The notes beneath the pieces are model-generated. The model searched no databases. It was given only the letters and a program-made list of their open reading frames with translations, and was not told where the DNA came from. DNA of 24,000 nucleotides from Gammaproteobacteria bacterium (GTDB lineage: Bacteria > Pseudomonadota > Gammaproteobacteria > Steroidobacterales > Steroidobacteraceae). Made by a program: the position numbers and the translations under genes. The stretch's first letter is position 1. Each line of letters opens with the position of its first letter. The stretch covers positions 24,207 to 48,206 of the forward strand of contig DAHXNE010000037.1 in NCBI GenBank assembly GCA_027366635.1, in the 5' to 3' direction. Shown here piece by piece: positions 935 to 18,224 of the stretch.

Positions 935-1104
935 GGAGAATGCCGCGGGCGAGGCGGCCGAACGTCGCGATGGCTTTGACAGGAGGGTTGCCGGGGGCGC
1001 AGGTTCGCCACGGCGATCGCGCCGCTTGCGATTATTTAGCGCGTAAGTCATTGACCGAAAAAATGTTCCGAGCGGTCCGGCGGCGAGGCGTCGTCCGGCC
1101 GCAC

Positions 1105-1314
1105 TCAGAACACGAATTCGATCATGCCTTCGTCCATGGCCTGGATGATCGCCGCTGCCATGTGGGGGCAATATCCCTGCTGGCGCAGGCGAAGCCGTTC
1201 CTGGAAGTATTCGCATTTACAGACCCACAGGCGGTCGTTGCCCATCTGGTAACAGGCAACTTCCTGTCCTTCGATATTGAACCGGAAGATCTTATCAGTC
1301 TCGGTTGAAGTCAT
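1105..1314 (-). CDS. Stand-alone SWIM-type zinc-finger mini-protein (69 aa)
   Basis: Track ORF. It has the CxC-x14-CxH pattern (VCKCEYFQERLRLRQQGYCPHM). Amino-acid composition is balanced, unlike the neighbouring spurious ORFs. GC and third-position GC are locally lower than in flanking genes. Confidence 0.6.
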   Translation of the reverse strand: MTSTETDKIFRFNIEGQEVACYQMGNDRLWVCKCEYFQERLRLRQQGYCPHMAAAIIQAMDEGMIEFVF

Positions 1315-1625
1315 GGCTCTGTGCCGCCTTTTGCCATGGAATCGGTCGGGTGAGCAGAGTATCCCGCGTCCGCCGCGTCGGAGGGGCTGTCGCGTGCTTC
1401 AAATCCCCTCTGGCACGTCGCAACCGGCAGGACGACGTACTATCTTAAACCCGGGTCGGCGGCTGTGGCGCGGGAATTGTTCCGTCCGACCGCAGCACTG
1501 GGGCGCAATGACCTGGGGCAGGCCCGCGCGCGGCGCGATGTGGGGGCCGGGCGCGCCGCACCGCGGACAGATCCGCCAAGTCACGATCACGGTCACGATT
1601 GCTCTGGGAGATGGCGCGGTCGGCT

Positions 1626-3383
1626 TCATGCGGTGGCCGTGCCCTGAAGCTGTGCGCGCCATGACGCGGCGTAGGCGCCGTTGTGCCGCAGCAGGCTGGC
1701 ATGCGTCCCGCGCTCGACGATGCGCCCAGCGTCGAGTACCACAATCTCGTCGGCGTGCACGACGGTCGAGAGCCGGTGCGCGATCATCAAAGTAGAGCGG
1801 CGCTCGGAAATCTCGCGCAGGCGCGCCACGATGTCCTGCTCGGTCCGGCTGTCGAGCGAGGCGGTGGCTTCATCGAAGACATAGAGGATCGGGGACGTCA
1901 GAACCGCCCGGGCGATCGCGACGCGCTGGCGCTCGCCGCCGGAGAGCTTCACGCCCCGCTCGCCGACCTGGGTATCGTAGCCGTCCGGGAGGCTCATGAT
2001 GAACTCGTGAAGGTGGGCGATGCGGGCGGCTCGCTGGACATCCGCGAGGGTCGCTCCGGTGCGGCCGAATGCGATGTTGTAAGCCAACGAGTCGCTGAAC
2101 AGCACGGTGTCCTGAGGGACCACGGCGATGGCTCGGCGCAATTGCAGCAGCGACAGCTGGGATATCGGCACGTCATCGAGCAGGATGAGTCCTCCGTCCG
2201 GCTCGATCAGGCGGGTCAGAAGCCGCACGAGGGTCGATTTTCCCGATCCGCTCGAGCCCACGACCGCCAGTGTGCGCCGCGCCTCGATCCTGAAGCTGAT
2301 GTCTCGGAGTACGGGGCGGCCGCGGCGATACGTCAGGCTGACTTGGTCGAACGCCAGCGCGCCCGGTCCGGTGGGGGCTCCCGCCGGGCTCCGGGCGGCC
2401 GGTTCGGGCGTCTCGCGAAACAGCCCAAGCATAGTCTCGAGCATGGCCATGCCCTGGGAGAAACCCTGCGCGGCGTAGCCGAGCGTCTCGACGGGCCGCA
2501 GCAGCTGCAGCATGTAGGCGTTGACCAGGACGAAGTCGCCAAGGGTCATGCGGCCGGTGCGCACATCGACGGTCGCGTACCCGGTGGTGGCGGCGAGAAA
2601 CGCCGCGAAGATGCTCGCCACGAGCAAGCCGTTACCGGCAAACCGGCGATAGAACGCGACCCATGCGTGCTCGCTGCGCGCCAGCGCCTGTCCGACCCGC
2701 TCCTGCAGCGCCGATTCGGCCGCGAAGTATTTCACGGTCTCGTAGTTGAGCAGACCATCGGTGAGGGCTGCGCTGGCGTGCACGCGGGCGGCGGACGCCA
2801 CGCGCGCAGTCGCACCCAGAGTCGCCGCCGAGTAGCCGAACACCGCCGCATAACATAACAACGCGCCGCAGAACAGGGCGAGGAACACCGGGGGGGCCAT
2901 GCGCCACAGGACCACGATGACCGTTGCCAGCTCCACGGTGACTGGCAGGACCGTGAACACCAGGTGGTGCAGGATCATCTGCAGGCCTTCCAGGCCGTTG
3001 GTGAGCGTCTCGTTGACCGCGCCGGTCTGGCGGTCCAGATGGAAGCGCAGCGGCAGGTGCAGCAGATGCGCGAACAGCCGCTCGCTGAGGGTGCGAAACA
3101 TCCGCCGCTCGATGCGCCCGTACACCATCCCGCGCAATTCCCCGGCCGCCCGGGCGAGCCACTGGCTGAGCGCGTACAGGGCGACCAGCAGGAGCGCCGG
3201 CTCAGATGCCCTGCCGCTGAAGCCGTCGACGATGAGTTTCAGGGCGATGGGGCCGAGGGCCGTCAGCACGGCGGCGCAGATCACCAGCACCAGGACCAGG
3301 GCGAGCCTGCGGCGTACGAACGGCGTGGCTTCCCGATAGAGGATATCGAGCACCTGCGCAAGCCGGGTACCGTTCCCGGACAT
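1626..3383 (-). CDS. ABCB-type half transporter (fused permease + ATPase), Atm1/MsbA-like exporter, 585 aa
   Basis: N-terminal ~300 aa are hydrophobic TM helices. It has Walker A GSSGSGKST, signature LSGGERQRVAIARA, Walker B ILYVFDEATASLD and the H-loop IAHRLST. The ATG at 3383-3381 directly abuts the TAG of the upstream gene (3386-3384). Confidence 0.9.
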   Translation of the reverse strand: MSGNGTRLAQVLDILYREATPFVRRRLALVLVLVICAAVLTALGPIALKLIVDGFSGRASEPALLLVALYALSQWLARAAGELRGMVYGRIERRMFRTLSERLFAHLLHLPLRFHLDRQTGAVNETLTNGLEGLQMILHHLVFTVLPVTVELATVIVVLWRMAPPVFLALFCGALLCYAAVFGYSAATLGATARVASAARVHASAALTDGLLNYETVKYFAAESALQERVGQALARSEHAWVAFYRRFAGNGLLVASIFAAFLAATTGYATVDVRTGRMTLGDFVLVNAYMLQLLRPVETLGYAAQGFSQGMAMLETMLGLFRETPEPAARSPAGAPTGPGALAFDQVSLTYRRGRPVLRDISFRIEARRTLAVVGSSGSGKSTLVRLLTRLIEPDGGLILLDDVPISQLSLLQLRRAIAVVPQDTVLFSDSLAYNIAFGRTGATLADVQRAARIAHLHEFIMSLPDGYDTQVGERGVKLSGGERQRVAIARAVLTSPILYVFDEATASLDSRTEQDIVARLREISERRSTLMIAHRLSTVVHADEIVVLDAGRIVERGTHASLLRHNGAYAASWRAQLQGTATA

Positions 3384-4397
3384 CTACAGCGGCCCGTAGG
3401 CCGGACTCGGCCGCGATGCGCGCGGCTCGGGCTCGGGCGCCGATGTGGGCAGATCCGGGAACAATTCGCCGGTGGTGAGCGCGAAGTATTGTGGTTGCGT
3501 GCGCCGGTGCCGGTCGATCAGCGCGCGCAGGTCCGAACTCGTGACGCCGAACCATCGGCCCACTGTTCCGATCCGCGCCGTCCCGGTTCGCATGGCATAC
3601 CAGGCCACCAGCGCGCGGGCGAGTGCGCCCCGGTGGGTCGGGGCGCAGGCGACGCGGGGCTCGGCATGCAGCACCGTCCACATCACTGCCCGCAGCAGTT
3701 CTTCGGGAGACGGCGCCGGCACGGGCGTGCGGCACCGGCTGCGCGCCGTCTGCCGGAAGGTGCGCTCTCCGATGACGGGCCGCGCGAGCAGGTCCGCGAT
3801 GGCGGGACTGTCGGTGCCTGCCATGAACTCGAAATAGGCGCCGGGACCGACATGACCTAGAGCCTCCAGGGCCGCGCGCAGCGCGCTCAGGACGAAGCGC
3901 GCCGGCGGCGCTCGTCTGCCGCAGTGGATCAGGCTGGAGCTGAACGGATGAGTGCCGGCGCGGCGCCGTGCGCCGGGTGTTTCCCGTCGTTGCACGTAGC
4001 GCACCGCGTAAGGGAGCTTCGCCGGCTGCAGGAGCTGTGCCTTGTACCGGCGCGGAAAGAGCTTCTCGGGCCGCGCTGAGCGAATGTCCTGCCTGAGGTG
4101 GCGCGCATAGCGCGACAGCAGGTCGTGCATCAGCCAGGACAGCGGCGCGCCGCCGCTCTGCAGCACGATCAGCGCGGCGTTCGGCTCCGTGACATAGGCG
4201 TGAACCCAGGCGTCGTATTGCTCGCACAGGTCCCACAGCAAACGCTCGAAGACCTCGACGTGCGGCGCGTGGGCGCGCGGATTCTGCGGGAACCGCCGGA
4301 ACAGGTCCGGGGCATAGAACACGTGGCCGCCGGGCGGGCCGCCGGCGCTCACCAGGTGCAGAGCGCCCGGGAATTCACAGCGCCTGGGGCGTGCCAT
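3384..4397 (-). CDS. Y1 (IS200/REP-associated, COG1943-like) transposase-fold protein lacking the HUH histidines, with a C-terminal DnaA-domain-IV-like HTH; probable domesticated DNA-binding protein
   Basis: The opening MARPRRCEFPGALHLVSAGG resembles the ARxPRIxxPGxxYHVxxRG opening of RayT-like proteins. The position of the NHxHLL (HUH) motif reads EPNAALIVL. An RY(I/V) segment is retained (AVRYVQRRE...HPFSSS). The C-terminus ALARALVAWYAMRTGTARIGTVGRWFGVTSSDLRALIDRHRR is HTH-like. Confidence 0.6.
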   Translation of the reverse strand: MARPRRCEFPGALHLVSAGGPPGGHVFYAPDLFRRFPQNPRAHAPHVEVFERLLWDLCEQYDAWVHAYVTEPNAALIVLQSGGAPLSWLMHDLLSRYARHLRQDIRSARPEKLFPRRYKAQLLQPAKLPYAVRYVQRRETPGARRRAGTHPFSSSLIHCGRRAPPARFVLSALRAALEALGHVGPGAYFEFMAGTDSPAIADLLARPVIGERTFRQTARSRCRTPVPAPSPEELLRAVMWTVLHAEPRVACAPTHRGALARALVAWYAMRTGTARIGTVGRWFGVTSSDLRALIDRHRRTQPQYFALTTGELFPDLPTSAPEPEPRASRPSPAYGPL

Positions 4398-4425
4398 GGT
4401 GTGCTCTGCGAGGCCTGCGCGCGCA

Positions 4426-5292
4426 TCAGCGCGCGCGCGCGGCGTACTCGCCGCAGTCGCGGCCGGTCAGGACCGCGACCACGGCCTGGGTGAGGGCCTG
4501 TTCGAGGCGCTCGTCGAGCCGCGCGTTGGGGATTCTCAGCACCACGTCCCGGCGTTGCCGCTCGATGCGCAACAGCGGCTCGCCCGCCGGGCCTTTCACC
4601 ACGCGGCTCGTGCTTCGCCGAGCGCCGCGCCCGGCGGCGCCGCGCTCGGCGAGCAGCAGCTCATAGACCGACACCGCCGGCGGGCGTGGCATGCGCTGCT
4701 GCACGGCCCGGGCCCGCTCGGCGAGCATACGACGCCGATCGTCACTCCAGGCCTTGTGCAGCTCGACGGCCCACGATTCCAGGATGTCGTGCGGCGTGGC
4801 GAATGCGCCGAGGATGACCGCCGGCAGCTCGGCGAATTTCAACAGCCGGCTAACCTGCGTGGGGGTGATGGCGAGCTCGCGCGCCATCTCTTCCTGGGAG
4901 CCGAACAGATTCCGGCGCAGCAGCTTCGCCAGCCACAAGCCGCGCTCGTAGGCGCTGGCCTGCTTGCGCAGAGTGTTCTCGGCTTCGACGGCCACGGCCG
5001 CTTGCCGGTCCGTGAGTTCGCGGATCTCGACTTGCAGCGCAACCTTCAGCTGCCGGGCGACGAACAGCCGGCGCGTGCCGCAGATCACCTCGATATCGAA
5101 GTCCGGGTCGCCGACGAGCATCCGGCCGATCACCGGAATAATCTGGCCGTCGCGAGCGAAGCTGTCGATTTCGGCCCGGCACGACGCCTCGGTCACGTCA
5201 TCTTCGATCCGCTCATTGAGCGTCCAGATGCGGCAGCGGAATGGATCGGCGGTCACGAGCGGTCCGCAGTCGCGGGCGGGGCGCGCGCTCAC
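4426..5292 (-). CDS. ParB/Srx N-terminal-domain protein with central HTH (ParB-like, no ParA partner)
   Basis: It has DGQIIPVIGR...EVICGTRRLFVARQL (GxRR arginine patch) and ELTDRQAAVAVEAENTLRKQASAYERG. The HTH-like segment is SQEEMARELAITPTQVSRLLKFAELP. The GTG start at 5292 overlaps the upstream TGA (GTGA, 5289-5292). Confidence 0.75.
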   Translation of the reverse strand: MSARPARDCGPLVTADPFRCRIWTLNERIEDDVTEASCRAEIDSFARDGQIIPVIGRMLVGDPDFDIEVICGTRRLFVARQLKVALQVEIRELTDRQAAVAVEAENTLRKQASAYERGLWLAKLLRRNLFGSQEEMARELAITPTQVSRLLKFAELPAVILGAFATPHDILESWAVELHKAWSDDRRRMLAERARAVQQRMPRPPAVSVYELLLAERGAAGRGARRSTSRVVKGPAGEPLLRIERQRRDVVLRIPNARLDERLEQALTQAVVAVLTGRDCGEYAARAR

Positions 5293-6212
5293 GGGGCTTC
5301 TCGGTCGGCCCGCGGCTCGTGGGCGTAGAACTCGCGCAGCTCGCGCTCGCTGCTCTCGGGTATGGCATCGACGGCGGGCAGGGTATGCGAGGCGGTTCGG
5401 AACAGCACCGCCGGATCCTGCCCTTCGTATCCGCCCAGGTTGGGACGATGAATGCGATAGCCGAGCAGGTCGCGCAGCGCGGGCGGGAACTGCCGGGCGA
5501 CGGCCGGCGGATAGGACAGGAAGGCGTTCTCGTACTGCTTCAGCCAGCCCAGGCAGTAGCTCAGGATCAACCCGGTCCGGGGCCGGTCACTGCGATTGGC
5601 GCCCGCGCAGTGCGTCAGGGAGCCGAGGTACACCAGCGCTGAGCCGCGCGGCATGGCGGCGACCGTGGCCTGCGCCAGATCGAGCTCGCGCGACAGGCGG
5701 GCGAACTGGCTGCGGGGCCAGAGCAGAGTGGCACCGTTGTCGGCGGTGAAATCCGACAGTGCCCACATGACATTGACCAGGTACTCGATGCCGCCCTTTG
5801 GGCACGGCCACATCTCCTCATCCCGATGCGGCACCTGCTGCCGCTCGCCGGGGTGCAGGCGCACCGCCTGGGTCAGGTTGAGTTGATACCAGTCGCAGTG
5901 CGGACCGAGCACCGCGTCGAGCAGGCTCAGCATCAGCGGATGCAAGATCAGCGCCTGGGAGGCCGGCGATTTCAGCGGCACGGAACCGAATCGGGTGGTG
6001 TTCCAGCCGTAGAAGTCGCCCCGGCAGCGCGGGGTCGCCGTGAACCATGGATCGAGCTGCGCATTCAACTGGTTGACGCTCTCATCGGGCAGCAGCCGGT
6101 CGAAGATGACGTAGCCGTTGGCGCGTAGCAGGTCGAGCGGCGTCGGGGATTGATGGACCCGGGCCGCCGCGTGCGGCGCGTTCCCGCTAATCGACGCGAA
6201 CGGCTCAGTCAT
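5289..6212 (-). CDS. Phytanoyl-CoA dioxygenase (PhyH) family Fe(II)/2-oxoglutarate-dependent oxygenase, 307 aa
   Basis: This is the C-terminal part of the 770-aa track ORF. A plausible start is the ATG at 6212 (MTEPFASISG...), which overlaps the luxI stop as ATGA. The HxD facial-triad motif is QQVPHRDEE and the distal His is in GSLTHCAGANRS. The overall pattern is typical of PhyH. Confidence 0.8.
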   Translation of the reverse strand: MTEPFASISGNAPHAAARVHQSPTPLDLLRANGYVIFDRLLPDESVNQLNAQLDPWFTATPRCRGDFYGWNTTRFGSVPLKSPASQALILHPLMLSLLDAVLGPHCDWYQLNLTQAVRLHPGERQQVPHRDEEMWPCPKGGIEYLVNVMWALSDFTADNGATLLWPRSQFARLSRELDLAQATVAAMPRGSALVYLGSLTHCAGANRSDRPRTGLILSYCLGWLKQYENAFLSYPPAVARQFPPALRDLLGYRIHRPNLGGYEGQDPAVLFRTASHTLPAVDAIPESSERELREFYAHEPRADREAP

Positions 6213-6877
6213 GGCCGTGCTCCTCCAGTGGCTGAGGGGAGCGCGGCGTGCGCCGGCGGCGGCAGGGGGGCGAGGGCCGGCAGGCGCGTGGCGGGGATCG
6301 GTATGCCGTGCTCCCGGCGCACGGCGCGCAGCCCCGCAGGCGTGATGCTCGCGGCGGCGGCCGCAACCTCCTCGGCACCGCAGCCGAGGCGGGGGCCCAG
6401 GGCTCGCGCCTCCCAACCGCAGTGCAGCAGGAGGCGCAGCAGAGCGCGGTTCACCGCGAAGACCACCACCTCGATGCCGTACAGCAGAGCGGTCTCGAGC
6501 ACGCCGCACACCATTTCCCAGATCAGCCGGTGCGGGCGGCCGCCGTGCAGACCGGGCGCCACGCACAAGCGCGACACCTCCCAGACTGTCGGGCCGCGCG
6601 GAATCGCCGCCAGGCATGCGGCCGGGAACAGCTCGCTCATCAGGTGCGGTCGGTCCGTCGGCAGCAGCCGCACCGAGGCGAGCACCGGGCCGGTGAGCTG
6701 GTCTTTGGCGAGCAAATAGACCGTATCGTCGCGGTCGTAGCGGTCGATCTCCCAAACCCCAGTCACGGGAACGTTCCAGCCGGCGCGGTCGACGAATATG
6801 ACTTTGCGCTGGCGATGCATGGTCGCCAGGTCGGCGGCGAACCCTGAGCGGTTCTCGGCGTTGACAAGAAAGATCAT
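6209..6877 (-). CDS. luxI: Acyl-homoserine-lactone synthase, LuxI family (222 aa)
   Basis: It has MHRQRKVIFVDRAGWNVPVTGVWEIDRYDRDDTVYLL...ASVRLLPTDRPHLMSELFP...VWEVSRLCV, the canonical LuxI block order (RxxVF..xxGW, E.D.YD, RLLPT, WE.SR). GGAGG lies 5 nt upstream of the ATG. Confidence 0.9.
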   Translation of the reverse strand: MIFLVNAENRSGFAADLATMHRQRKVIFVDRAGWNVPVTGVWEIDRYDRDDTVYLLAKDQLTGPVLASVRLLPTDRPHLMSELFPAACLAAIPRGPTVWEVSRLCVAPGLHGGRPHRLIWEMVCGVLETALLYGIEVVVFAVNRALLRLLLHCGWEARALGPRLGCGAEEVAAAAASITPAGLRAVRREHGIPIPATRLPALAPLPPPAHAALPSATGGARP

Positions 6878-6937
6878 TGCACCCTCCGGGCTTTCCTACC
6901 GTGGAGCAACCCTGCCGGATGTAGGGGCCGATGAGGA

Positions 6938-6953
6938 TCCTCTGATCAGAGGA
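6938..6953. promoter_or_regulatory. Perfect 16-bp palindrome TCCTCTGATCAGAGGA in the luxR-luxI intergenic region; candidate non-canonical lux-box operator
   Basis: Read directly from the sequence. It lies 61-76 bp upstream of the luxI ATG (6877) and 93 bp downstream of the luxR stop. A palindrome with dyad symmetry is expected for a LuxR-dimer site, but the CTG/CAG half-sites are adjacent to the dyad rather than spaced as in the classical 20-bp lux box. Confidence 0.4.
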
Positions 6954-7045
6954 GGGCACGGCCGGCTGGGCGACCGTCCGTCGGCACGGTTGTTGCATCC
7001 GCCGCGGGCCCGGACTGGCCGCGACCGCGAGGTGCTCGCCTGTGC

Positions 7046-7792
7046 CTACTTCGGTTGCCCATCGGTGCCGCAGATCTGTCCGGTTCTGAGCGCCTGAACC
7101 ACGGCTTGCATGCGTGTGATCACGTCGAAGCGCTGCTTGGCGTGCTCGATGTGGTAGTGGACCGTGACTTGACTCAACCCCAACAGCCGGGCGATCTCCC
7201 AGTCGGTCTTGCCGCGCGCGACGAGCGTCAGGCATTCTCGCTCGCGTGTCGTGAGCTCCGCGGGGCTGCTGTTTTCGATGTGGGCGCGCCCGGTGCAGGC
7301 ATACAGGCACAGGGCCAGCAACCGCACGGTGGTGTAGCTGCGCGGGTCGAGCGCGCCGCTCGCGGGAACCACCGAACACGAGGCTCGGGGCGAACCGGCG
7401 GTCGCGCGGCCGTGGAGCGGGATTGTGTAGCCGTGCGCGATCCCGAAACCCGCCGCTTCCTCTAGAACGATGTGCTGCGCCTCGCTGATCGGTCGCGCCT
7501 CGAAGGCCGCATCCCAGAAGAACGGCCGGACCGTGCGCGTGGCGAGCTGCAGCACCGGGTCGATGCGGAAGTGTCCGGCCGCGCGGAAGCGCCGCGCCCA
7601 TGCGGCCGGGTAGTTGTGCAGTAGCACCGGCCGCAGGGTCGGATCAGCCGGATCGGCGTGCAGGCAGTAGGCGAAGTGGCGGAAGCCGAGAGTCGCGATT
7701 GCGGCGCCGAACGCCGCGTCGATGTCGAGGAGCGAGCTGTGCTCGCTCTGGCAACGCTCGAGGAAGGAGGCGAGCAGTTCGAGATGATCCAT
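7046..7792 (-). CDS. luxR: LuxR-family autoinducer-binding transcriptional regulator (248 aa)
   Basis: The track ORF 7046-7924 is trimmed to the ATG at 7792 (MDHLELLASF...). The N-terminal autoinducer-binding pattern is NYPAAWARRF-x8-IDPV...RPFFW...GFGIAHGYTIP. The C-terminal GerE-type HTH is LTTRERECLTLVARGKTDWEIARLLGLSQVTVHYHIEHAKQRF. Confidence 0.88.
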   Translation of the reverse strand: MDHLELLASFLERCQSEHSSLLDIDAAFGAAIATLGFRHFAYCLHADPADPTLRPVLLHNYPAAWARRFRAAGHFRIDPVLQLATRTVRPFFWDAAFEARPISEAQHIVLEEAAGFGIAHGYTIPLHGRATAGSPRASCSVVPASGALDPRSYTTVRLLALCLYACTGRAHIENSSPAELTTRERECLTLVARGKTDWEIARLLGLSQVTVHYHIEHAKQRFDVITRMQAVVQALRTGQICGTDGQPK

Positions 7793-8179
7793 GGCCTGCC
7801 GGCGCGCCGCGCTCTTCCGGTCCGCCTTCGGGCTGCAGTAAGCTCGGCACTGCGCCGCATGTCTGCCCGGGGAATAACGACGCTCAGCCGTAGAATGGCT
7901 CAGGCGGCCAGCCGATTCACGCACCGCGCGCCCCGTCTTTTGACGCCTTGACAGTGTCGCACCGCAGGAGTAATTCGTCGCCGTGGTTGGGCGGGCGCCG
8001 ATTGGGAAAGCAGGGCCCGACGCTGCGGACGTGATGCAACTTTACAATAACTCCGACGCGGGTGGCGCCAACCCGGCATGACAGGCGTCGTCGGCATGGC
8101 GTAGCCTGCGCCGAGTTCGGATTGGGAGCCTGGCGGGCGCCGCGGGCGCCGCAGCGCGTCAAAGGGGGATCATGGGAGG

Positions 8180-8200
8180 CCGGGCACGGTGCGTGCCCGG
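8180..8200 (+). promoter_or_regulatory. Perfect 9-bp GC-rich stem with 3-nt loop (CCGGGCACG-GTG-CGTGCCCGG) between the SD-like GGGAGG (8174-8179) and ATG 8204; the loop is itself the candidate GTG start
   Basis: Base pairing was checked by hand (8180-8188 pairs with 8192-8200). It may act as a translation-initiation-region structure for the response-regulator gene. Confidence 0.35.
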
Positions 8201-8836
8201 AATATGGGACTGCGCATGATGCAGACGAGGGTGTACATCGTCGCTGCGGACCCGGGGATACGCAGGGGGTTGCAGCTGACGCTCCAAGCGACCGGTTGCC
8301 CGACACGCAGCTTCGCCTCCGGGAGCGCCTTCCTTCGGGACTGCGCGCGCCTGCCCGCCGGCTGCGTGATCCTGGATCTGAGCGTGCCGGAGTTGGGCGG
8401 TTCCCAACTCCTGGGTGAGCTTGCGGCCACCGGCGACCGCTGGCCGGTGATCGTGCTCGCCAAGCATGCCGATCGGGCGCAAGTGGTGCGCGCGCTGCGC
8501 GCCGGCTCCGTGTTGTTGTTGGAGAAACCGATCCGCGCGGCGGAACTGATCGCGGCGGTGCACAACGCGCAGGCGCTGTTGCGCGATGCCGGCGGTCAGC
8601 GGCCGGATCCGGCGGTGGCGGGCGCAGTGACGCTGTTGACGCGGCGCGAACGGCAAGTGCTCGATGCGCTATTGGCATCCGAGCGCATCAAGCAGACCGC
8701 GGCGCGGCTGGGGATCGCCGAGAGCACGGTCAAATCGTGTCGCAAGACGATCAAGAACAAGCTCGGCGTGCACAGCACGGCCCAGCTGATTCAGTTGGTG
8801 ACGCGCGCCGGGGTTGGGATCACGGGGCGACCGTAG
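8189..8836 (+). CDS. Response regulator, REC + LuxR/FixJ (GerE) HTH, with atypical receiver pocket
   Basis: REC region: VYIVAADPGIRR...VILDLSVPEL...VIVLAKHAD...LEKP. HTH region: LTRRERQVLDALLASERIKQTAARLGIAESTVKSCRKTIKNKLG. The start is uncertain. GTG 8189 lies 9 nt after GGGAGG, and in-frame ATGs occur at 8204, 8216 and 8219. Confidence 0.85.
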   Translation: MRARNMGLRMMQTRVYIVAADPGIRRGLQLTLQATGCPTRSFASGSAFLRDCARLPAGCVILDLSVPELGGSQLLGELAATGDRWPVIVLAKHADRAQVVRALRAGSVLLLEKPIRAAELIAAVHNAQALLRDAGGQRPDPAVAGAVTLLTRRERQVLDALLASERIKQTAARLGIAESTVKSCRKTIKNKLGVHSTAQLIQLVTRAGVGITGRP

Positions 8837-8860
8837 CGCAGCCGCGGTTGCCCCCGGGGC

Positions 8861-9437
8861 TCAGCGCCCGCGCCTGGCGCGGGCCATGCGGCGCATGCGA
8901 TTCGAGGCGTCGGTGCTCTGTTGGCGGATTTCGGTGCCGGTGAGGGCCAGGAACGCCTCCTCCAGGGTACTGGTGCCGGTGCGCGCCTTGAGCTCAGCGG
9001 AGCTGCCGAGAGCGACGATGCGCCCGTGATCGATGACCGCGATCCGACCGGCCACCCGGTCGGCCGCGGGCGACGTAGTGGGTGATGAGCAACACCGTGA
9101 CGCCTTCGTCTTTGTTGAGCTGCCGCACGTGCGTCCACAGCTGGTTGCGGCTTTGCGGGTCGAGGCCCAGGGTCGACTCGTCGAGGAACAGGATGCGCGG
9201 CGTGTGCAGCGGGCCGCGGGCGATCTGCGGGCGGCGCATCATTCCGCCGGAGTACTGCTTCACAAGCTCCTCGCGCCGCTCCCACAGACCAAGCAGATCG
9301 AGCCGGGCGCGGGTGCGCTCGCGGCGCAGCTTGCGGGGAACGTGGTAGAGCGTGCCGTGCAGCTCGAGGTTTTCCCACGCCGAGAGGTTCTGATCCAGGC
9401 TCGGATCATGAAACACGATGCCGAAGCGTCTGCGCAC
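8861..9437 (-). pseudogene. ABC-transporter ATP-binding protein remnant (5'-truncated, frameshifted)
   Basis: Two track ORFs (8994-9437 and 8861-9055) together spell an ABC ATPase from the Q-loop region onward: RRRFGIVFHDPSLD...YSGGMMRRPQIARG...ILFLDESTLGLDP...VLLITHY, then after a frame change (A)ADRVAGRIAVIDHGRIVALGSSAELK...LEEAFLALTG. The frameshift lies at about 9066-9076. I found no Walker A in any minus-strand frame of the first ~100 nt upstream (9438-9540); further upstream only one frame was translated. Confidence 0.75.
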
Positions 9438-9669
9438 TTCGTTGGGCTCGCGTGACGAGCGCGCCGCATTACGGTGGTGGGAAACTATCGCGCGGGCATG
9501 TACAAGGACTGGCTGGCGGCGGCAAAGAAATCGGCGGCCTGACCGGCATCGCGTACGCCGCGCAGATCACTTCTGCAGGTCGCGAGCAGCCGCTCGAGCG
9601 GGGAGCGGCTGAGGGCGGCATCTGGACGCTGGGGCACTTGCCGGCTCGTGTAGCCGCAGCGGCCCGCCT

Positions 9670-10419
9670 TCAGGCCGGTCGGTTGCGCGACGGTGCGCCC
9701 GCGCCAGCCAGCAGCATCTGCAGCGCCGAGCCGTAGCTGCGTAACGTGGCCGCGCCATCGCCCAAAAACGACGCACCATGCATCACGGCGATGACGCGCG
9801 GTTCAAGTGCCGCAAGCCGTTCCAGCCCCGTTGCGGTGTGCGGCGTCCACGGGATCGAATCGTGGAACGGGCCGCGTTGTCCGGCTTCGAAGTCGGCGAT
9901 CGCGTTCGCAAGGACGTCGTCGGCGAGGGGCGCGGGGTTGCCGCGTTGCAGCAGCAGATCGGAGGCGAACAGCACGCGTTCTGTTGCATCGAACAGCAAC
10001 GACGATTCCCAGTTGTGCGGGATGTAGGGTGTCGCGAGGAAGCGGAAGCGGTGCCGGCCGGTCGCGAAGGTCGCGTCGTGTTCAAGTATACGGGGCGGAC
10101 GCCTGGCAAAGTCGTTGATGCAGGTTGCCGCCGCGACCACGCCCGCCAGCGGCGTGGCCTTCGGCGCAAGATCGAGCCAGCGGTTGAGCGCGCCGCATTC
10201 GTCAGACTCGAAGTGGCTGAAGCCGATCCAGCGCAAAGTCGCGACGTCGATCAGTGACGCGACCGCGGCGTGTACTTCGTCGAACAATGCATTTTGCGCG
10301 GCGTGGTACAGCAGTGGTTCGTCATCGCGCACCAGGAACTGGTTGAACTGCAGGTCGGGGCCCGCGGCGTAGGTGGAAATCCGGAATACGTCCGGCGCGA
10401 TTTCCGTGACTCGGCTCAT
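9670..10419 (-). CDS. MBL-fold / ODP-type (flavodiiron-like beta-lactamase-fold) protein, 249 aa
   Basis: It has FNQFLVRDDEPLLYHAA...LRWIGFSHFESDECGALNRWL...PYIPHNWES, an H-x-E-x-D-type metal motif in the position typical of the ODP / FprA-like MBL domain. GAGG lies 7 nt upstream of the ATG. Confidence 0.65.
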   Translation of the reverse strand: MSRVTEIAPDVFRISTYAAGPDLQFNQFLVRDDEPLLYHAAQNALFDEVHAAVASLIDVATLRWIGFSHFESDECGALNRWLDLAPKATPLAGVVAAATCINDFARRPPRILEHDATFATGRHRFRFLATPYIPHNWESSLLFDATERVLFASDLLLQRGNPAPLADDVLANAIADFEAGQRGPFHDSIPWTPHTATGLERLAALEPRVIAVMHGASFLGDGAATLRSYGSALQMLLAGAGAPSRNRPA

Positions 10420-10749
10420 GGTTCGCCTCGAAACATCTGGGCGTGAATGGCACTCGGATAAGCCGCGGCGCGAGAGCTACGGCAGCGTAAGATGTGGAAG
10501 GATAAAGGAGAAACATTGGTTCTGGATAGTTGTCCATCGACTGACGGTCGACCCCGAGTCATGAAGCGGCCCGGCAAGGTCACAGGCACAGGGAGGTGCC
10601 CCGCCGCCGCAGGTCGCGGACGTTGAGCGAAAAACCACGCTTTTTGGCGCAACGGCGCTGGGCGGGGCAGGAGCCCCGATCCAGCGCTTCTTAATAGCGT
10701 CCAAGCTACTGGCGGACTACGGGTGAGGCGTGCCATAGCTGTACCCTCG

Positions 10750-11724
10750 CTACGGCAGGGCGCTCGATATCCAGCTCCCCGTCCGCAGCGTCACCGGCGA
10801 GTAGTCGAGGAAGGTCGCGCGTAGTGCCGTGGCCCGTGGGCGATACCAGCCGCGTCGAACGCAGAAGTGCCAGATGCGCTCCGCGCCGGCGAAGAGCTCG
10901 TTCGCTTCGGACGCGTCCCATTCGATGGCCGCGAGTCCCTGGAGTTGCAGCAGATCGCCTGTCTCGAAATCAAGAAACAGGAGCGATGCGCGCGGTTCGC
11001 CGAGGAAATTACCGAGCGTGTTGAAGTAGCGATTGCCGCGGAAGTCCGGAATGGAGAGCGTATCGCCGCGCAGTCGCACGAAGCCCGGTCGGCCGCCGCG
11101 GTGCGAGATGTCAGCGCCGCCGGCCGGGCCGAGTCCGTCGCGCGAGCGGCTCGCGACGATGAAGGTGTCGGCTCGCTGGATCAACGCCTGCGCGTCCAAC
11201 GCGTGATCGAGTGAATCGATCTGCCGCACAGCGCGGTCCGCAGCTCTCTCTGACCGGGTCACGGTGCGCCGCTGAATGTATTGCGGGCAGTTGCCGAAGC
11301 TCTGCCTGACGGCGAGCGTGAACCCCGAGGCATCGAGCGCGGATACGATGCCGTTCGCGCGGTTGCGCCGTCGTGTACTGAGCTCCAAGCCAAGCATGCC
11401 GATCTCGTCTCCCACCCGGATCGTGCCGGCGGCAGGATCGCCGGCAGGAGGGAGTGCATGTATGCGCAGAGTGATCGGATCGGGCGATTCGATGAAGCCC
11501 GGAGCGCCTTCCAGCAATGTCGCGAGAGGCCGGCCAGCGGCATCCACCGTGGCCAGAAACACATGGGGAAGCGCGGCAAAGAAGCTGCGATGTTGCTCCG
11601 TCATGAAATTGCGGATGCCGCCGCTTCGCGCGCTGACGCCCGCAAGGGCTTGCGCCGCGAGCTCATCGGCGTGAAATCCGCAACGATCATGAGCCGGCGG
11701 CTCGACACTTTCGACGTGCTCCAC
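10750..11724 (-). CDS. Pyridoxamine 5'-phosphate oxidase-like FMN-binding split-barrel family protein (324 aa)
   Basis: It has IRNFMTEQHRSFFAALPHVFLATVDAAGRP...STRRRNRANG...VRQSFGNCPQYIQRR...ISHRGGRPGFV, matching my recollection of this family. The GTG start lies 11 nt after the GST stop, so the two are probably co-transcribed. Confidence 0.7.
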   Translation of the reverse strand: MEHVESVEPPAHDRCGFHADELAAQALAGVSARSGGIRNFMTEQHRSFFAALPHVFLATVDAAGRPLATLLEGAPGFIESPDPITLRIHALPPAGDPAAGTIRVGDEIGMLGLELSTRRRNRANGIVSALDASGFTLAVRQSFGNCPQYIQRRTVTRSERAADRAVRQIDSLDHALDAQALIQRADTFIVASRSRDGLGPAGGADISHRGGRPGFVRLRGDTLSIPDFRGNRYFNTLGNFLGEPRASLLFLDFETGDLLQLQGLAAIEWDASEANELFAGAERIWHFCVRRGWYRPRATALRATFLDYSPVTLRTGSWISSALP

Positions 11725-11735
11725 GCGACTCGACC

Positions 11736-12398
11736 TCAGCTTGCGGACGCAGGCTCGCGTGGCAGAGCAGCGCGCGGCATGGCCTGAAACCGTGGTAGAG
11801 CCTCGACTCGCGCGAGCCAGCCGCGAACAGCCGGGTAGGGCTCGAGAGAGATGCGCCCTTCGGGCGCGCGGGCCGTGTAGGCATAGCAGGCGAGATCGGC
11901 AAGACTCGCCTGCTCACCAGCAAGATACGGATGATCTCCGAGGTGCATCTGCATGAACCGGAAGAGTCGTCCGGCGATCTCTACGGCGCGCGCGTGGTCG
12001 GCGGGATAGTTCCAAACTGTGATCAGGCGGGCGGTCGCGGGTCCGTACTTCAGCTCGCCCGCGGCAATCGATAGCCAACGCTGCACGCGGGATGCGGCGA
12101 GCGCTTCTTCAGGCATCCACGTGCCGCCCGGGGCGTAGCGCCTCGCCAGGTACACCAGGATCGCGTTGCTGTCGGCGAGCACCAGGGATCCGTCCTCGAG
12201 AACGGGTATCTGCCCGAGCGGGTTGAGTCGCAGGAACTCGGGCGAGCGGCGCACCTCATCGGGCGCGCTCACGAACCGAAAGGGAATCTCGAGCATTCGC
12301 AGGAGAAGCACGACCCGATGGACGTGGCCGGAGAACTCGGTGCCGTATAGGGTGATGCGAGGCTTGCCCGTGTGCAGCCTGACCTGGGGTGCGTTCAC
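11736..12398 (-). CDS. Glutathione S-transferase family protein (220 aa)
   Basis: The track ORF 11736-12560 is trimmed to the GTG at 12398, which is preceded by GGAGGA with a 6-nt spacer. It has ITLYGTEFSGHVHRVVLLLRMLEIPF...LNPLGQIPVLEDGSLVLADSNAILVYLAR (thioredoxin-like GST N-domain) plus an alpha-helical C-domain. Confidence 0.8.
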   Translation of the reverse strand: MNAPQVRLHTGKPRITLYGTEFSGHVHRVVLLLRMLEIPFRFVSAPDEVRRSPEFLRLNPLGQIPVLEDGSLVLADSNAILVYLARRYAPGGTWMPEEALAASRVQRWLSIAAGELKYGPATARLITVWNYPADHARAVEIAGRLFRFMQMHLGDHPYLAGEQASLADLACYAYTARAPEGRISLEPYPAVRGWLARVEALPRFQAMPRAALPREPASAS

Positions 12399-12486
12399 CT
12401 GAAGTCCTCCTCGAGTCGCGCGCTCGTCGAACCCGGAACAGTGTATCCTTGCGCCAGACGCTGCCAATCTGGCACTTGCAAAAGAC

Positions 12487-12509
12487 AGAATTCCACTCAT
12501 TGCAATTCT
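12487..12509. promoter_or_regulatory. LysR-type T-N11-A box: AGAATT-N11-AATTCT inverted repeat in the GST/lysR divergent intergenic region
   Basis: Read directly: perfect 6-bp arms separated by exactly 11 nt, 4 nt upstream of the lysR ATG (12513). The position is consistent with an autoregulatory / recognition binding site. Confidence 0.5.
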
Positions 12510-12512
12510 CGA

Positions 12513-13415
12513 ATGGATCGTCTGGATGAACTCGCGGTGCTTGTCGCCGTGATCGATCACGGCAGTCTGGTCGCGGCCGCTCGCCGCTTGCGCCGATCGC
12601 CGCCGGCCATCACACGGACTCTCGCGGCTCTCGAGAGTCGTGTCGGCGCACGTCTCGTCGAGCGCAGCACTCGCCGGCTCTCCCCGACCGAGGCGGGCCG
12701 CGCGCTTGCCGAGAGTTCGCGGGCGCTGCTCGGCTCGTATGATGCAGCCGTCGCCGGAGTATCACCTGCGCCGGTTCGTGGGCTCGTCCGAGTCACCGCG
12801 CCGCTGCAATTTGGGCGGCGCCACGTGGTGCCGCTCGTCGCGTCATTCCTCGAACAATTCCCCGAGGCACAAGCGGAACTCGTGCTCCACGATCGCCATC
12901 TCGACCTCATCGAGGAGCGGCTCGACGTCGCTGTGCGAATCGGCACGCTGTCGGATTCCTCGCTCCTGGCGAGACAAGTCGGCTTGGTACGCCGCGTGGT
13001 GGTCGCGAGTCCCGACTACCTCGCGCGCCGCGGTACACCGAAGCGGCCGCAGGAGCTGACGCGTCACGACACGATCTTTGGCACGGGCACGCAGGCACCG
13101 CTTGAGTGGCGATTCCGTGGTCGTGGCCGATCGACGGCCGTACGGCTCGCGCCGAGGCTCCTGGTCAATGAGGTCGAGGCGCAGCTCGTTGTCGCTCGCG
13201 CAGGCCTTGGCATCGCTCGCGTGCTGTCGTATCAAGTCGAGGAGGATCTCGCAGCCGGAACGCTCGTCCGTCTGCTGCAAGGGTTCGAGCCGCCGCCCCT
13301 ACCCGTGCAGCTAATCGCCATCAGTCGCGTGCTCATGCCGTCGAAGGTCAGAGTGTTTCTCGATTTCGCGGCGGCGCGGCTCATCGAGCTGAGCGCCATT
13401 CACGCGGAGCGGTGA
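12513..13415 (+). CDS. LysR-family transcriptional regulator (300 aa)
   Basis: The track ORF is trimmed to the ATG at 12513: MDRLDELAVLVAVIDHGSLVAAARRLRRSPPAITRTLAALESRVGARLVERSTRRLSPTEAG (LysR HTH), followed by a substrate-binding domain. It is divergent from the GST-PNPOx pair. Confidence 0.88.
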   Translation: MDRLDELAVLVAVIDHGSLVAAARRLRRSPPAITRTLAALESRVGARLVERSTRRLSPTEAGRALAESSRALLGSYDAAVAGVSPAPVRGLVRVTAPLQFGRRHVVPLVASFLEQFPEAQAELVLHDRHLDLIEERLDVAVRIGTLSDSSLLARQVGLVRRVVVASPDYLARRGTPKRPQELTRHDTIFGTGTQAPLEWRFRGRGRSTAVRLAPRLLVNEVEAQLVVARAGLGIARVLSYQVEEDLAAGTLVRLLQGFEPPPLPVQLIAISRVLMPSKVRVFLDFAAARLIELSAIHAER

Positions 13416-13588
13416 GGGGGACCCTTCGGCGCACGCGTCGCACCCCGATCACTGGAAGGCCGGGGCGGATGGTGCGAGGACGGACGGTACCTCTCGATCG
13501 AGATCCGTCTCCGGGGGGGGCGTACACCAATATCAGCCTGGCTGGGTCGCAGCTCTGCCTGCCTCGCAACCGGCCCATATCTTAAATA

Positions 13589-13617
13589 TTGTGCGGATAT
13601 TCGCGCGCGTATATACT
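13589..13617 (+). promoter_or_regulatory. Candidate sigma70-type promoter TTGTGC-N17-TATACT upstream of padR
   Basis: Read directly within the only AT-rich patch of this intergenic region, about 70 nt upstream of the padR GTG. Flanking small palindromes are GTATATAC and TGAAAC-N16-GTTTCA. This is a motif match only. Confidence 0.3.
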
Positions 13618-13685
13618 GAAACAAGTACTCGGTATGAAGTTTCAATTCTCGTGAACTGCGTTCGGGTCGCACCGGGGGCTGCTGA

Positions 13686-14288
13686 GTGAGCAAGCGCAAA
13701 GTCTCGAACCCATTGGCACTGGCGGTGCTCGCCTGTCTCTACGAGCGGCCCATGCATCCCTACGAGATGGCGAGCACGATGCGCGAGCGACACAAGGACG
13801 AGAGCATCAAGCTCAATTACGGCTCGCTTTATGCCGTGGTGGAGTCCCTCAAGAAGCACGAGCTGATCGCCGAGCACGAAACCGAGCGCGCAGGCCATCG
13901 GCCGGAGCGCACCGTCTATCGCATCACTGACGCCGGACGCCTGGACCTCATCGATTGGCTCAGCGAGCTCCTCAGCCGTCCGGCCAAGGAATACACCCAC
14001 TTCGAGGCGGGACTGTCGCTGCTGCCGGTGTTACCGCCCGAGGATGCCGTCGCACTCCTCGAGCAGCGCTGTCAGGTGCTCGAGTTGCGCGCGGCGCAGT
14101 CACAGTCGCTGCGCGAGCTTTTTGCCAAACGCAGCTTCCCGCGTCTCTTTACCATCGAGACCGAGTACCGTTGGGCGCTCGAGGCGGCGGAACTCGAATG
14201 GACGCGGCGGCTCATCGCCGACATCCGGTGCGGATCGCTCGACGGGCTCGAGTTCTGGCACGGATTTCACGCGCGGCGGCCGGACTGA
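13686..14288 (+). CDS. PadR-family transcriptional regulator (200 aa)
   Basis: It has NPLALAVLACLYERPMHPYEMASTMRER...LNYGSLYAVVESLKKHELIAE...ERTVYRITDAGR, a winged-helix PadR pattern, plus a long C-terminal dimerisation region. Confidence 0.85.
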   Translation: MSKRKVSNPLALAVLACLYERPMHPYEMASTMRERHKDESIKLNYGSLYAVVESLKKHELIAEHETERAGHRPERTVYRITDAGRLDLIDWLSELLSRPAKEYTHFEAGLSLLPVLPPEDAVALLEQRCQVLELRAAQSQSLRELFAKRSFPRLFTIETEYRWALEAAELEWTRRLIADIRCGSLDGLEFWHGFHARRPD

Positions 14289-14297
14289 CCCATCAAC

Positions 14298-14984
14298 ATG
14301 AGATCAAGAGCGATGCAACAGCCCACAGAGCGCACAAAGCCCTATCGCGGATTCGCAATGGAGGGGCGGATCGCCCGCTGGTATGCGCGGAACACCGCAA
14401 AGGACATGCAGGAGTTCCGTCGACTCGCGGATCGATTCTCGAAAGACCTGCCGGCGCACGCGAAGGTGCTCGAGATTGCGCCGGGACCCGGTTACTTTTC
14501 CGTCGAGCTTGCCAGACGCGGCCCGTTCGAGATCGTCGGAGTCGATATTAGCAAGAGCTTCGTCGCAATCGCCACCGAGAACGCAAAGAGGGCAGGGGTC
14601 GCCGTCGGATTCGAGCGGGGGAATGCGTCGGCCATGCCGTTCGCCGATGACACGTTCGATTTCGTTTTCTGCCGAGCGGCCTTCAAGAACTTCACGCGGC
14701 CCGTGGAGGCAATGAGCGAGATGCATCGGGTCCTCAAGCCGGGAGCTCGAGCAGTCATCATCGATCTGCGCAAGGACGCCTCGATGAGCGATATCAATGA
14801 CTACATCGAGCGCTCGGACCTGACCAGGATCGATCAAGTGATGTACAAACTTACCTTCCGCTATCTCTTGATCCCTAGAGCCTACACGAGACGACAATTC
14901 GAGGAGATGGCCTCGGCTGCGCTGTTTCGCGGAGCGCAAATCAACGAATCTGGAATCGGATTTGAAGTGACTCTGAGCAAGTAG
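14298..14984 (+). CDS. Class I SAM-dependent methyltransferase (228 aa)
   Basis: Motif I is VLEIAPGPGYFSVELARRG. It also has VGVDIS and FDFVFCRAAFKNF...VLKPGARAVIIDL. It starts 9 nt after the padR stop, so the two probably form an operon. Confidence 0.85.
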   Translation: MRSRAMQQPTERTKPYRGFAMEGRIARWYARNTAKDMQEFRRLADRFSKDLPAHAKVLEIAPGPGYFSVELARRGPFEIVGVDISKSFVAIATENAKRAGVAVGFERGNASAMPFADDTFDFVFCRAAFKNFTRPVEAMSEMHRVLKPGARAVIIDLRKDASMSDINDYIERSDLTRIDQVMYKLTFRYLLIPRAYTRRQFEEMASAALFRGAQINESGIGFEVTLSK

Positions 14985-15153
14985 CCTGGATGTCCGAAGC
15001 TTCCATCGCCGAGCCGATGCGGCGGCTCCCGCAGATGAGTCGGACCGCCCAGTGCGGCGCGGACATCGCCGTCGACCGTGCGCAGGGCGGTCCTTGCGCC
15101 TTCTGACACCCGGGGCGGACGCGCCACGCCTGCTTTCGCCCTTCGGGCGCCAT

Positions 15154-16242: not shown

Positions 16243-16290
16243 GGAATCCTCCCCGGTTCAAGCGTTCTCGACTACGCTATACCCGTCATC

Positions 16291-16302
16291 ATTGACGTCA
16301 AT
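16291..16302. promoter_or_regulatory. Perfect 12-bp palindrome ATTGACGTCAAT, with an adjacent imperfect inverted repeat TTGAT-N7-ATCAA (16304-16320), in the 89-bp divergent intergenic region between the two citrate-synthase paralogs
   Basis: Read directly from the sequence. It is a candidate operator for the HTH fused to the downstream paralog. Confidence 0.35.
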
Positions 16303-16331
16303 CTTGATTGATTCGATCAACGCGAGGGTGC

Positions 16332-17507: not shown

Positions 17508-17516
17508 CGCTTTGCC

Positions 17517-17539
17517 CGGCGGCCTCGGCGGGGCCGCCG
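17517..17539 (+). terminator. GC-rich hairpin (8-bp stem CGGCGGCC/GGCCGCCG, 7-nt loop) 10 nt after the stop of the HTH-citrate-synthase gene; no U-tract
   Basis: Base pairing was checked by hand. It lies in a convergent intergenic region, and the lack of a T-run keeps confidence low. Confidence 0.3.
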
Positions 17540-17650
17540 CCGCAATCTCGCACCGGATATGCCGGCCACAAGCCCAGACACGCCGACGCGGATGTAGTGG
17601 GACTGCGGATCCACCGATGTAGATGATCGAAAGCCTGTGTTGAACTGTAC

Positions 17651-18142: not shown

Positions 18143-18224
18143 CACTCTGTGGCCTAAATCAATGGCTCAGGGCGCGCAGCGTAGGGCTTTCAGGTTCCGA
18201 CCAGAAGTGGCATTATTGCCATTA

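Follow-up and report, generated by a model that had tools for sequence, protein, structure and literature searches.

A LuxI-linked subfamily of PhyH oxygenases that may oxidize acyl-homoserine lactones

Why should the gene for an oxygenase be coupled to the gene for a quorum-sensing signal synthase? The question is raised by a 24,000-nucleotide (nt) stretch of DNA, hereafter the window, from a gammaproteobacterium of the Steroidobacteraceae (GenBank assembly GCA_027366635.1, contig DAHXNE010000037.1). Here luxR, luxI, and a phyH-like gene for an Fe(II)/2-oxoglutarate (2OG) oxygenase follow one another on one strand, with luxI and phyH overlapping, an order that fits the layout of the published luxR-luxI-phyH module. 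The original prediction for this locus, made from the sequence alone, presented the pairing of an acyl-homoserine lactone (AHL) synthase with an oxygenase as a fresh observation; the synteny was already in print, from a metagenomic clone and from Sphingomonadaceae (PMC3704786, PMC4288048, PMC5012321). The window is a new gammaproteobacterial member of this known, uncharacterized module, to which we add a near-obligate linkage across about 80 genomes, a clade boundary, recurrent gene fusions, a selection pattern, and a conserved operator position. From comparisons of this kind, we consider it very likely that the oxygenase works in the AHL pathway with LuxI, and we tentatively favor the view that it oxidizes the finished AHL post-synthetically.

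Relatives of the window PhyH are numerous (4703 homologs at E ≤ 1e-5 in a large protein collection; after clustering at 50% identity, 237 representatives below 1e-30). When one genome per species was scanned with only two PhyH peptide motifs, drawn from a 14-sequence alignment, a relative was found in 493 genomes, and we examined the neighborhoods of the best 80 of these (PhyH 49 to 88% identical to the window) by searching their six-frame open reading frames (ORFs) with the window proteins. luxI lay immediately 5′ of phyH on the same strand in 78/80 species genomes, and luxR was found in 74/80. The two exceptions are a locus that ends at a contig edge (L041) and one that has lost both luxR and luxI (L025). 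A 4-nt overlap was the commonest junction (21/78 loci), with a spacer of ≤60 nt in most of the others. Hosts were Steroidobacteraceae among the Gammaproteobacteria; Hyphomonadaceae/Terricaulis/Caulobacteraceae, Sphingomonadales, Rhizomicrobium, Pedomonas, and Kordiimonadaceae among the Alphaproteobacteria; and a single Hydrogenophilaceae metagenome-assembled genome (MAG) among the Betaproteobacteria. The original prediction had named loss of the adjacency in related genomes as a finding that would speak against it; the adjacency is kept. This near-obligate pairing is not due to chance.

The linkage extends to plasmids and has a boundary. We found 38 plasmid records, mostly conjugative, with PhyH at 44 to 51% identity, from Sphingomonadales, Variovorax, Hydrogenophaga, and Methylocystis, and in every neighborhood inspected luxI or a luxI remnant adjoins phyH. 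Hydrogenophaga pBPS33-2 has an annotated LuxR and AHL synthase next to phyH with a 4-nt overlap, Sphingobium SYK-6 pSLPG carries luxR-luxR-luxI-phyH followed by virB genes (luxI-phyH-hyp-virB1-B4), and on a Methylocystis plasmid an IS21 element has cut luxI, leaving an 88-amino-acid (aa) C-terminal stump. Identity on plasmids then drops from 44% to 37.7% or below, and relatives at ≤37.7% identity were without luxI in 6/6 loci inspected, one of them in a Sphingobium. The window PhyH falls in a distinct subfamily that is hardly ever found away from luxI. Most AHL synthases have no such partner, since 726 plasmid records carry a LuxI homolog, against the 38 with a PhyH of the luxI-linked group. 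Distant homologs carry an N-terminal SCP2 lipid-binding domain; at 36 to 39% identity, outside the luxI-linked clade, we encountered SCP2-PhyH fusions and tandem PhyH-PhyH proteins of 606 to 648 aa (P0173, P0174, P0196, and P0236; P0122 and P0123).

Several loci vary the arrangement. In L069 a cytochrome P450 gene (PF00067, 2e-93; 4547-5968) stands between luxI and phyH, ending 14 nt before phyH, so that two oxygenases follow one AHL synthase, an arrangement like that of a core synthase with its tailoring oxygenases. The P450 falls in a broad CYP97/CYP46/CYP4/CYP102 group, which is too broad to call it a fatty-acid hydroxylase, and we did not use that assignment. In L040 two complete, divergent luxR-luxI-phyH modules, each with its own phyH, lie back to back within 13 kb (1071-3569 on the minus strand and 4401-6840 on the plus strand). 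A tandem pair of luxR genes before luxI-phyH is common (L042 to L061, Hyphomonadaceae/Terricaulis; L087, Sphingobium SYK-6 pSLPG). A luxR-luxI-phyH set with PhyH 76% identical to the window also occurs on a 2.5-kb contig binned as Chloroflexota (L035); because the contig is so short, a binning error is more likely than a real case outside the Proteobacteria.

A linkage of this kind could arise if phyH were simply the first quorum-sensing-regulated target gene, riding on the luxI transcript while its product acted on something unrelated, for example a lipid or a xenobiotic. That phyH sits in an operon under quorum-sensing control was suggested by Hao et al. (2010), as cited in PMC3704786 and PMC5012321. 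Many hosts do degrade xenobiotics, and the module is often found on catabolic or conjugative plasmids. Cargo, however, should vary by lineage, as the genes 3′ of phyH do (ParB/ABC in the window, virB on sphingomonad plasmids) while luxI-phyH stays constant; instead phyH is retained in 78/80 genomes from three proteobacterial classes. It has also been fused repeatedly to luxI, and where a genome has several modules, each luxI retains its own phyH (L040; Novosphingobium subterraneum, PMC5012321). We regard the cargo explanation as unlikely.

The fusions were recovered by our searches as single-chain LuxI-PhyH proteins: P0062 (75% identity to the window PhyH) and P0124 and P0136 (both ~46%), whose linkers differ in length and sequence. 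A search with P0136 returned four further clusters of the same architecture, 549 to 553 aa long and 76 to 90% identical, from Logan, ENA, and NCBI assemblies. These four clusters adjoin a luxR and, with P0136, make up a Caulobacteraceae lineage of five clusters diverged to 76% identity. Catalytic residues of both domains are retained in 7/7 fusions. Frameshift artifacts at the ATGA overlap were considered and rejected, given the differing linkers and the recurrence of one type on 7 contigs and in five clusters diverged to 76% identity. LuxI and PhyH have evidently been fused at least three times independently (P0062, P0124, and the Caulobacteraceae lineage), and one fusion is stably inherited. 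At least three joinings, one of them inherited over such divergence, are hard to square with phyH either as a rider on the luxI transcript or as a destroyer of the LuxI product.

Destruction of the signal was the alternative offered by the original prediction, and it would amount to built-in turnover (quorum quenching or homeostasis) in which PhyH oxidizes the AHL to an inactive form. Nothing would be gained by fusing a synthase to the destroyer of its own product, yet the fusion has persisted down to 76% identity without loss of either active site. CYP102A1 (P450BM3) is known to inactivate AHLs by oxidation; it likewise acts on finished AHLs, and its family lies within the broad group of the L069 P450. 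It is a quencher in a non-producer, without linkage to a synthase, and differs from the window PhyH in enzyme class and cofactors. Co-expression of such an activity with luxI would give an incoherent feed-forward loop, and standard AHLs still accumulate in phyH-carrying strains (PMC5012321). Translational coupling at 1:1 and the strongest purifying selection in the cassette would nevertheless be unusual for a quencher, and PhyH, with no signal peptide visible at its N terminus, is cytoplasmic, while the signal pool is shared and extracellular. Because turnover sits badly with stable synthase-oxygenase fusions, we hold it to be quite improbable.

The pattern of selection was assessed in ten close comparisons, in which the ratio of nonsynonymous to synonymous substitution rates (dN/dS) was 0.12 to 0.21 for phyH, 0.22 to 0.36 for luxI, and 0.30 to 0.52 for luxR, with phyH the lowest of the three cassette genes in 10/10. 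PhyH likewise had the highest identity to the window in 70/70 loci (means of 61.1% for PhyH, 47.8% for LuxI, and 41.5% for LuxR). This slow clock would fit an enzyme that recognizes a constant portion of its substrate while LuxI and LuxR diversify with acyl-chain specificity, weak evidence given that 2OG oxygenases have many cofactor-binding positions. Together, the 78/80 linkage, the recurrent fusions, and the strongest purifying selection in the cassette strongly support a functional tie between the oxygenase and the AHL synthase.

What reaction might PhyH contribute? The protein scores 84.9 bits against PF05721 (cutoff 22), whose name, "phytanoyl-CoA dioxygenase," is a family label and not a function. 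The iron triad read in the original prediction from the PHRDEE and THCAGAN motifs corresponds to H129, D131, and H201, which align with the HxD motif and distal His of DhiD and AndA; R212, aligned with the same two enzymes, is the likely Arg for the 2OG C5-carboxylate. All four residues are invariant in the 14-sequence PhyH alignment; in an alignment of 40 family members with identities as low as 31%, H201 never varies, and conservation of H129, D131, and R212 is ≥90%. Conservation of the HxD...H triad and of the likely 2OG-binding Arg supports the earlier view that PhyH is neither a dead enzyme nor a halogenase; an Fe(II)/2OG halogenase of the SyrB2/WelO5 type was rejected because the Asp ligand of the triad, Asp131, is present and conserved rather than replaced by Ala or Gly.

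An AlphaFold2 model of PhyH (predicted local distance difference test score, 76.6; confident core, >90) has the double-stranded beta-helix fold, and its closest Foldseek matches are SptF, AndA, TlxJ, DhiD, and AsqJ, at template modeling scores of 0.63 to 0.69 and with a Foldseek probability of 1.00 for SptF, AndA, and AsqJ. The solved structures most similar in sequence are DhiD (6e-21), AndA, TlxJ, SptF, PrhA, EasH, OkaE, AsqJ, and FtmOx1. The natural-product oxygenases among these relatives (SptF, AndA, TlxI/J, DhiD [8zyb], AsqJ, PrhA, FtmOx1, and EasH) share the fold, the HxD...H triad, and the Arg with PhyH, and enzymes of the SptF/AndA type are tailoring enzymes encoded beside a core biosynthetic enzyme, as phyH is beside luxI. 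Their identity to the window PhyH is only 22 to 27%, however, and their substrates are fungal meroterpenoids or alkaloids. A literature search for the substrate of DhiD, the closest solved homolog, gave unrelated acronyms only, and no NCBIfam model exists for the PhyH protein. These relatives do not predict the PhyH reaction, since their chemistry spans hydroxylation, desaturation, epoxidation, and rearrangement. For the same reason, the hydroxylation proposed earlier becomes one option among several. The predicted chemistry is a 2OG-dependent oxidation of a smallish hydrophobic molecule, not narrowed further.

The relatives also bear on whether the oxygenase acts before LuxI, oxidizing the acyl-acyl carrier protein (acyl-ACP) or acyl-coenzyme A (acyl-CoA) donor, for example by 2-hydroxylation, so that LuxI would then make an unusual AHL. 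The PhyH Pfam family includes thioester-directed enzymes, and the SCP2-PhyH fusions found among its more distant members suggest acyl-lipid substrates. Human phytanoyl-CoA 2-hydroxylase (PAHX) acts on CoA esters, and SyrB2-type enzymes act on carrier-protein-tethered substrates. PAHX shares PF05721 with the window PhyH and has a lipid-like substrate, and its structure exists; still, no PAHX chain is present among the 45 PDB sequences matched by the window PhyH at E ≤ 0.01 or among the 50 best Foldseek matches listed, and on these grounds we rejected orthology with PAHX. No CoA- or carrier-protein-dependent PhyH enzyme of any kind is among those 45 sequences. An acyl-CoA substrate is not favored, since the nearest relatives by both sequence and fold tailor free, hydrophobic small molecules, and the statement in the original prediction that PhyH enzymes hydroxylate acyl-CoA or other lipid-like substrates was too narrow for the same reason. 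LuxI homologs of this clade, moreover, work without phyH on the normal acyl donors of their host (PMC5012321). Fusion and operon linkage are compatible with either order of steps, and we take action on the donor to be an unlikely explanation.

A modification of a protein or by-product, such as hydroxylation of LuxI, LuxR, or ACP or the processing of methylthioadenosine, might be imagined because the 2OG oxygenase superfamily includes protein hydroxylases. The closest relatives of PhyH are all small-molecule enzymes, however, and no sequence feature points to protein substrates, which makes this a highly improbable role.

The module is documented in earlier work. The luxR-luxI-phyH arrangement was described in a soil metagenomic clone (Hao et al. 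2010, Environ Microbiol 12:105, as cited in PMC3704786, PMC4288048, and PMC5012321). Gan (2013) found phyH beside novI in 4/5 Novosphingobium loci and cited a like topology for a metagenomic fosmid and other sphingomonads (PMC3704786), a luxR-luxR-luxI-phyH-X-virB topology was defined in 2015 (PMC4288048), and in 2016 N. subterraneum was reported to hold three novR-novI-phyH modules, the reaction of bacterial PhyH being termed "yet-to-be described" (PMC5012321). In the last study, each NovI expressed without phyH made C8-C12 and 3-hydroxy AHLs, as judged against 20 standards (PMC5012321). Neither AHL synthesis nor the 3-hydroxy group therefore requires PhyH, which must add something beyond the ordinary AHLs that these enzymes already make. 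Because only 20 standards were targeted, a new product would have escaped the N. subterraneum analysis. The three papers cited here (PMC3704786, PMC4288048, and PMC5012321) describe neither fusions nor a broad taxonomic range, and mention neither the clade boundary nor the pattern of selection; our literature search found no functional work on LuxI-linked PhyH after these sphingomonad papers.

The sphingomonad modules match the window in gene order, orientation, and a short or overlapping junction, and by the identity gap their PhyH is orthologous to that of the window (L074 to L084 and the 38 plasmid records, at 44 to 54%, within the luxI-linked group). Their published double-luxR "topology T," followed by virB, was also recovered in the present analysis. 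They differ in setting: published modules are sphingomonad or metagenomic and are followed by type IV secretion genes, whereas the window host is a Steroidobacteraceae-like gammaproteobacterium in which the module lies on a chromosomal-looking contig and is followed by a ParB-family gene, a 337-aa gene, and an ABC exporter. The nearest relatives are Steroidobacteraceae MAGs. A further likeness is to the traI-trb operons of Ti and rhizobial plasmids, in which an AHL synthase gene is the first gene of an operon running into conjugation genes. The luxI-phyH-hyp-virB1-B4 layout of Sphingobium pSLPG resembles traI-trb, and the best NCBIfam match of the window LuxI, below threshold, is the TraI-type AHL synthase, a likeness to traI. 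The Ti-plasmid traI, however, has no oxygenase partner, and the window itself, unlike traI-trb, has no conjugation genes.

The window LuxI scores 78.3 bits against PF00765 (cutoff 24), and its PDB matches are AHL synthases only (6wns, TofI, RpaI, LasI, and BjaI). The catalytic residues R24, F28, W34, D45, D48, and R70 are present in its translation (HRQRKVIFVDRAGW, EIDRYD, SVRLL, and WEVSR); WEVSR aligns with a Glu and an Arg (in P0136, E102 and R105) that do not vary among the seven fusion proteins, across which the columns of LuxI catalytic residues are invariant. The window LuxI is an AHL synthase, with AHL production predicted here and validated for the distant clade members NovI1-3 (PMC5012321). 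luxR lies 168 nt upstream of luxI and encodes an AHL-binding domain (Autoind_bind) and GerE. Its product has LasR as its best PDB match (5.6e-28) and keeps the equivalents of LasR Y56, W60, D73, and W88 (NYPAAW, RIDP, and FFW), with R61 changed to Ala and T75 to Val.

Upstream of luxI in the window is a lux-box-like palindrome, and we searched by script for palindromes with ≥7/8 arm positions matching and a center at −75 to −60 from luxI. Such a position-conserved palindrome was found in 48/76 related loci, compared with a mean of 3.5 and a maximum of 10 in shuffled sequences. Its sequence varies between lineages with the symmetry retained: AATAGGCACGTCCGTGCCTATT in Hyphomonadaceae, ATGGGCCGATCGGCCCAT in Terricaulis, TGAGCCAATTGGCTCA in Steroidobacter, and ATACCAAGTTCTTGGTAT in Sphingomonas, all at the same position. 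The palindrome behaves as expected of a lux box co-evolving with its own LuxR, to which it is predicted to bind. Its conserved position would place luxI, and with it phyH, under autoinduction, and the lack of a terminator between the two genes suggests that phyH is co-regulated with luxI.

These observations suggest the following course of events. luxI would be expressed from a lux-box-type promoter, co-transcribed and translationally coupled with its dedicated Fe(II)/2OG oxygenase, and LuxI would make an ordinary medium-chain AHL from acyl-ACP and S-adenosylmethionine. That AHL would then be oxidized in the cytoplasm by the oxygenase, whose synthesis would keep pace with that of LuxI and which probably associates with it physically. 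The reaction could be hydroxylation or another 2OG-type oxidation such as desaturation; the likeliest site is the invariant head-group end of the molecule or a position close to it, and the cell would emit the modified AHL alongside or instead of the standard one. We infer the finished AHL as substrate, the type and site of oxidation, and the role of the product as a signal. Oxidation of the finished AHL fits best because the relatives of PhyH use free small molecules, LuxI works without PhyH, a P450 has been added in one operon, and the fusions argue for consecutive steps.

Several points weigh against oxidation of the finished AHL. Operon linkage and fusion indicate a shared pathway and not the order of its steps, and PhyH may be better conserved than LuxI in part because so many positions of a 2OG oxygenase bind cofactors, rather than because it recognizes an invariant substrate moiety. 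Wild-type N. subterraneum, with its three modules, accumulates the standard AHLs that NovI makes alone (PMC5012321), so that conversion would be at best partial in those conditions. The canonical AHL-contact residues of the window LuxR give no sign of an unusual ligand, and we found no report in the literature of a modified AHL from a module-carrying organism. Beyond oxidation of the finished AHL lies a more specific and rather doubtful proposal: that the subfamily turns ordinary AHLs into an undescribed class of AHLs oxidized near the head group (the lactone ring or C2), that these would be the true or additional LuxR ligands, and that double LuxRs might sense the two forms separately.

Genes in the window were identified by an ORF listing and Pfam scans (Pfam annotation spanned ~1600-20200 and 22100-22700), and the genes of the feature all lie on the minus strand (Table 1). 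The ATGA in which, as originally proposed, the luxI stop and phyH start overlap holds at its coordinates on the coding strand, where the junction reads CTGGAGGAGCACGGCCATGACTGAG. The phyH frame, as a mechanical ORF, is open through luxI into luxR (770 aa, 5289-7601), an artifact of high G+C; the start used here is set by homolog N termini, gene calls on the source contig (a 78-kb metagenome contig that the window matches), and the ribosome-binding site. Such an over-long frame could mislead automatic ORF callers.

Table 1. Features of the luxR-luxI-phyH cassette and the genes packed behind it in the window
Feature	Coordinates	Strand	Details
luxR	7046-7792	minus	248 aa, starts MDHLELL; Autoind_bind 1e-30, GerE 2.7e-14; source-contig gene call identical
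Lux-box-like perfect 16-bp palindrome TCCTCTGATCAGAGGA	6938-6953	no strand	center 68.5 nt 5′ of luxI ATG
luxI, AHL synthase	6209-6877	minus	222 aa; Pfam Autoind_synth (PF00765) 6.8e-22
Shine-Dalgarno GGAGGAG for phyH, within luxI 3′ end	6220-6226	minus	7 nt ahead of ATG
ATGA, luxI stop/phyH start overlap	6209-6212	minus	TGA 6211-6209, ATG 6212-6210
phyH-like, Fe(II)/2OG oxygenase of LuxI-linked PhyH subfamily	5289-6212	minus	307 aa; PF05721 1.2e-23
phyH codons	H129 5826-5828, D131 5820-5822, H201 5610-5612, R212 5577-5579	minus	
ParB/RepB/Spo0J-family gene	4426-5292	minus	288 aa; TIGR00180 67.8 bits vs 58.45 cutoff; weak SopB_HTH
337-aa gene without family match	3384-4397	minus	28 nt after ParB-like gene
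ABC exporter, fused permease and ATPase	1626-3383	minus	585 aa; ABC_membrane, ABC_tran; MsbA/HlyB-like in NCBIfam, sub-cutoff

The string of packed genes exceeds two, as the phyH stop overlaps the GTG start of the ParB-like gene in the same manner (GTGA, 5292-5289), an overlap that the original prediction missed. The ParB-like gene is probably on the same transcript as phyH, and the ABC exporter starts at the base right after the stop of the 337-aa gene. No credible terminator was found inside the luxI-phyH-ParB-337 aa-ABC string, and Rfam and tRNA scans of the window gave no match. The ParB-like gene has no ParA partner nearby; in a quorum-sensing operon it could be a regulator or a mobile-element remnant. 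It stands directly 3′ of phyH only in the closest relatives, which are of Steroidobacteraceae type (L004 to L009, L011 to L013, L018, L020, L022, and L039), and in L003 the gene at this place was seen as ParB_N. The 337-aa gene has no Pfam or NCBIfam match, and homologs follow phyH in L005, L007 to L009, L012, L016, L032 to L034, and L039. Its homolog in L025 (6878-7879) has a Bac_DnaA_C helix-turn-helix and adjoins phyH despite the loss of luxR and luxI there.

The ABC exporter is kept in the closest relatives. In L003 (3679-8654) and L004 a homologous exporter lies on the opposite strand beside a 31-aa ORF, Transglut_core3, and Asn_synthase, which together form a lasso-peptide gene set; no lasso-peptide genes were found in the Pfam-annotated part of the window (about 1600-20200 and 22100-22700). 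On the other side of the cassette, beyond luxR, are a divergent response regulator gene (Response_reg and GerE; 8189-8836, plus strand) and a 147-aa ABC_tran fragment that looks truncated (8994-9437, minus strand).

The diversity of AHL signals is currently ascribed to the acyl donor picked by LuxI, and to our knowledge no dedicated enzyme that tailors an AHL after synthesis has been established. PhyH is the best available candidate for such an enzyme: its gene accompanies luxI in hundreds of species and is under tighter constraint than either luxI or luxR, and in some cases synthase and oxygenase form a single chain. The natural fusion proteins offer a single ready construct for testing LuxI-PhyH function. 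Since the module often stands ahead of conjugation genes on sphingomonad catabolic plasmids, the PhyH reaction could bear on the control of plasmid transfer. If oxidized AHL signals are indeed made, the module would represent a widespread and overlooked quorum-sensing dialect, found in about 500 species-level genomes of Proteobacteria from soil and water as well as on conjugative plasmids with catabolic functions.

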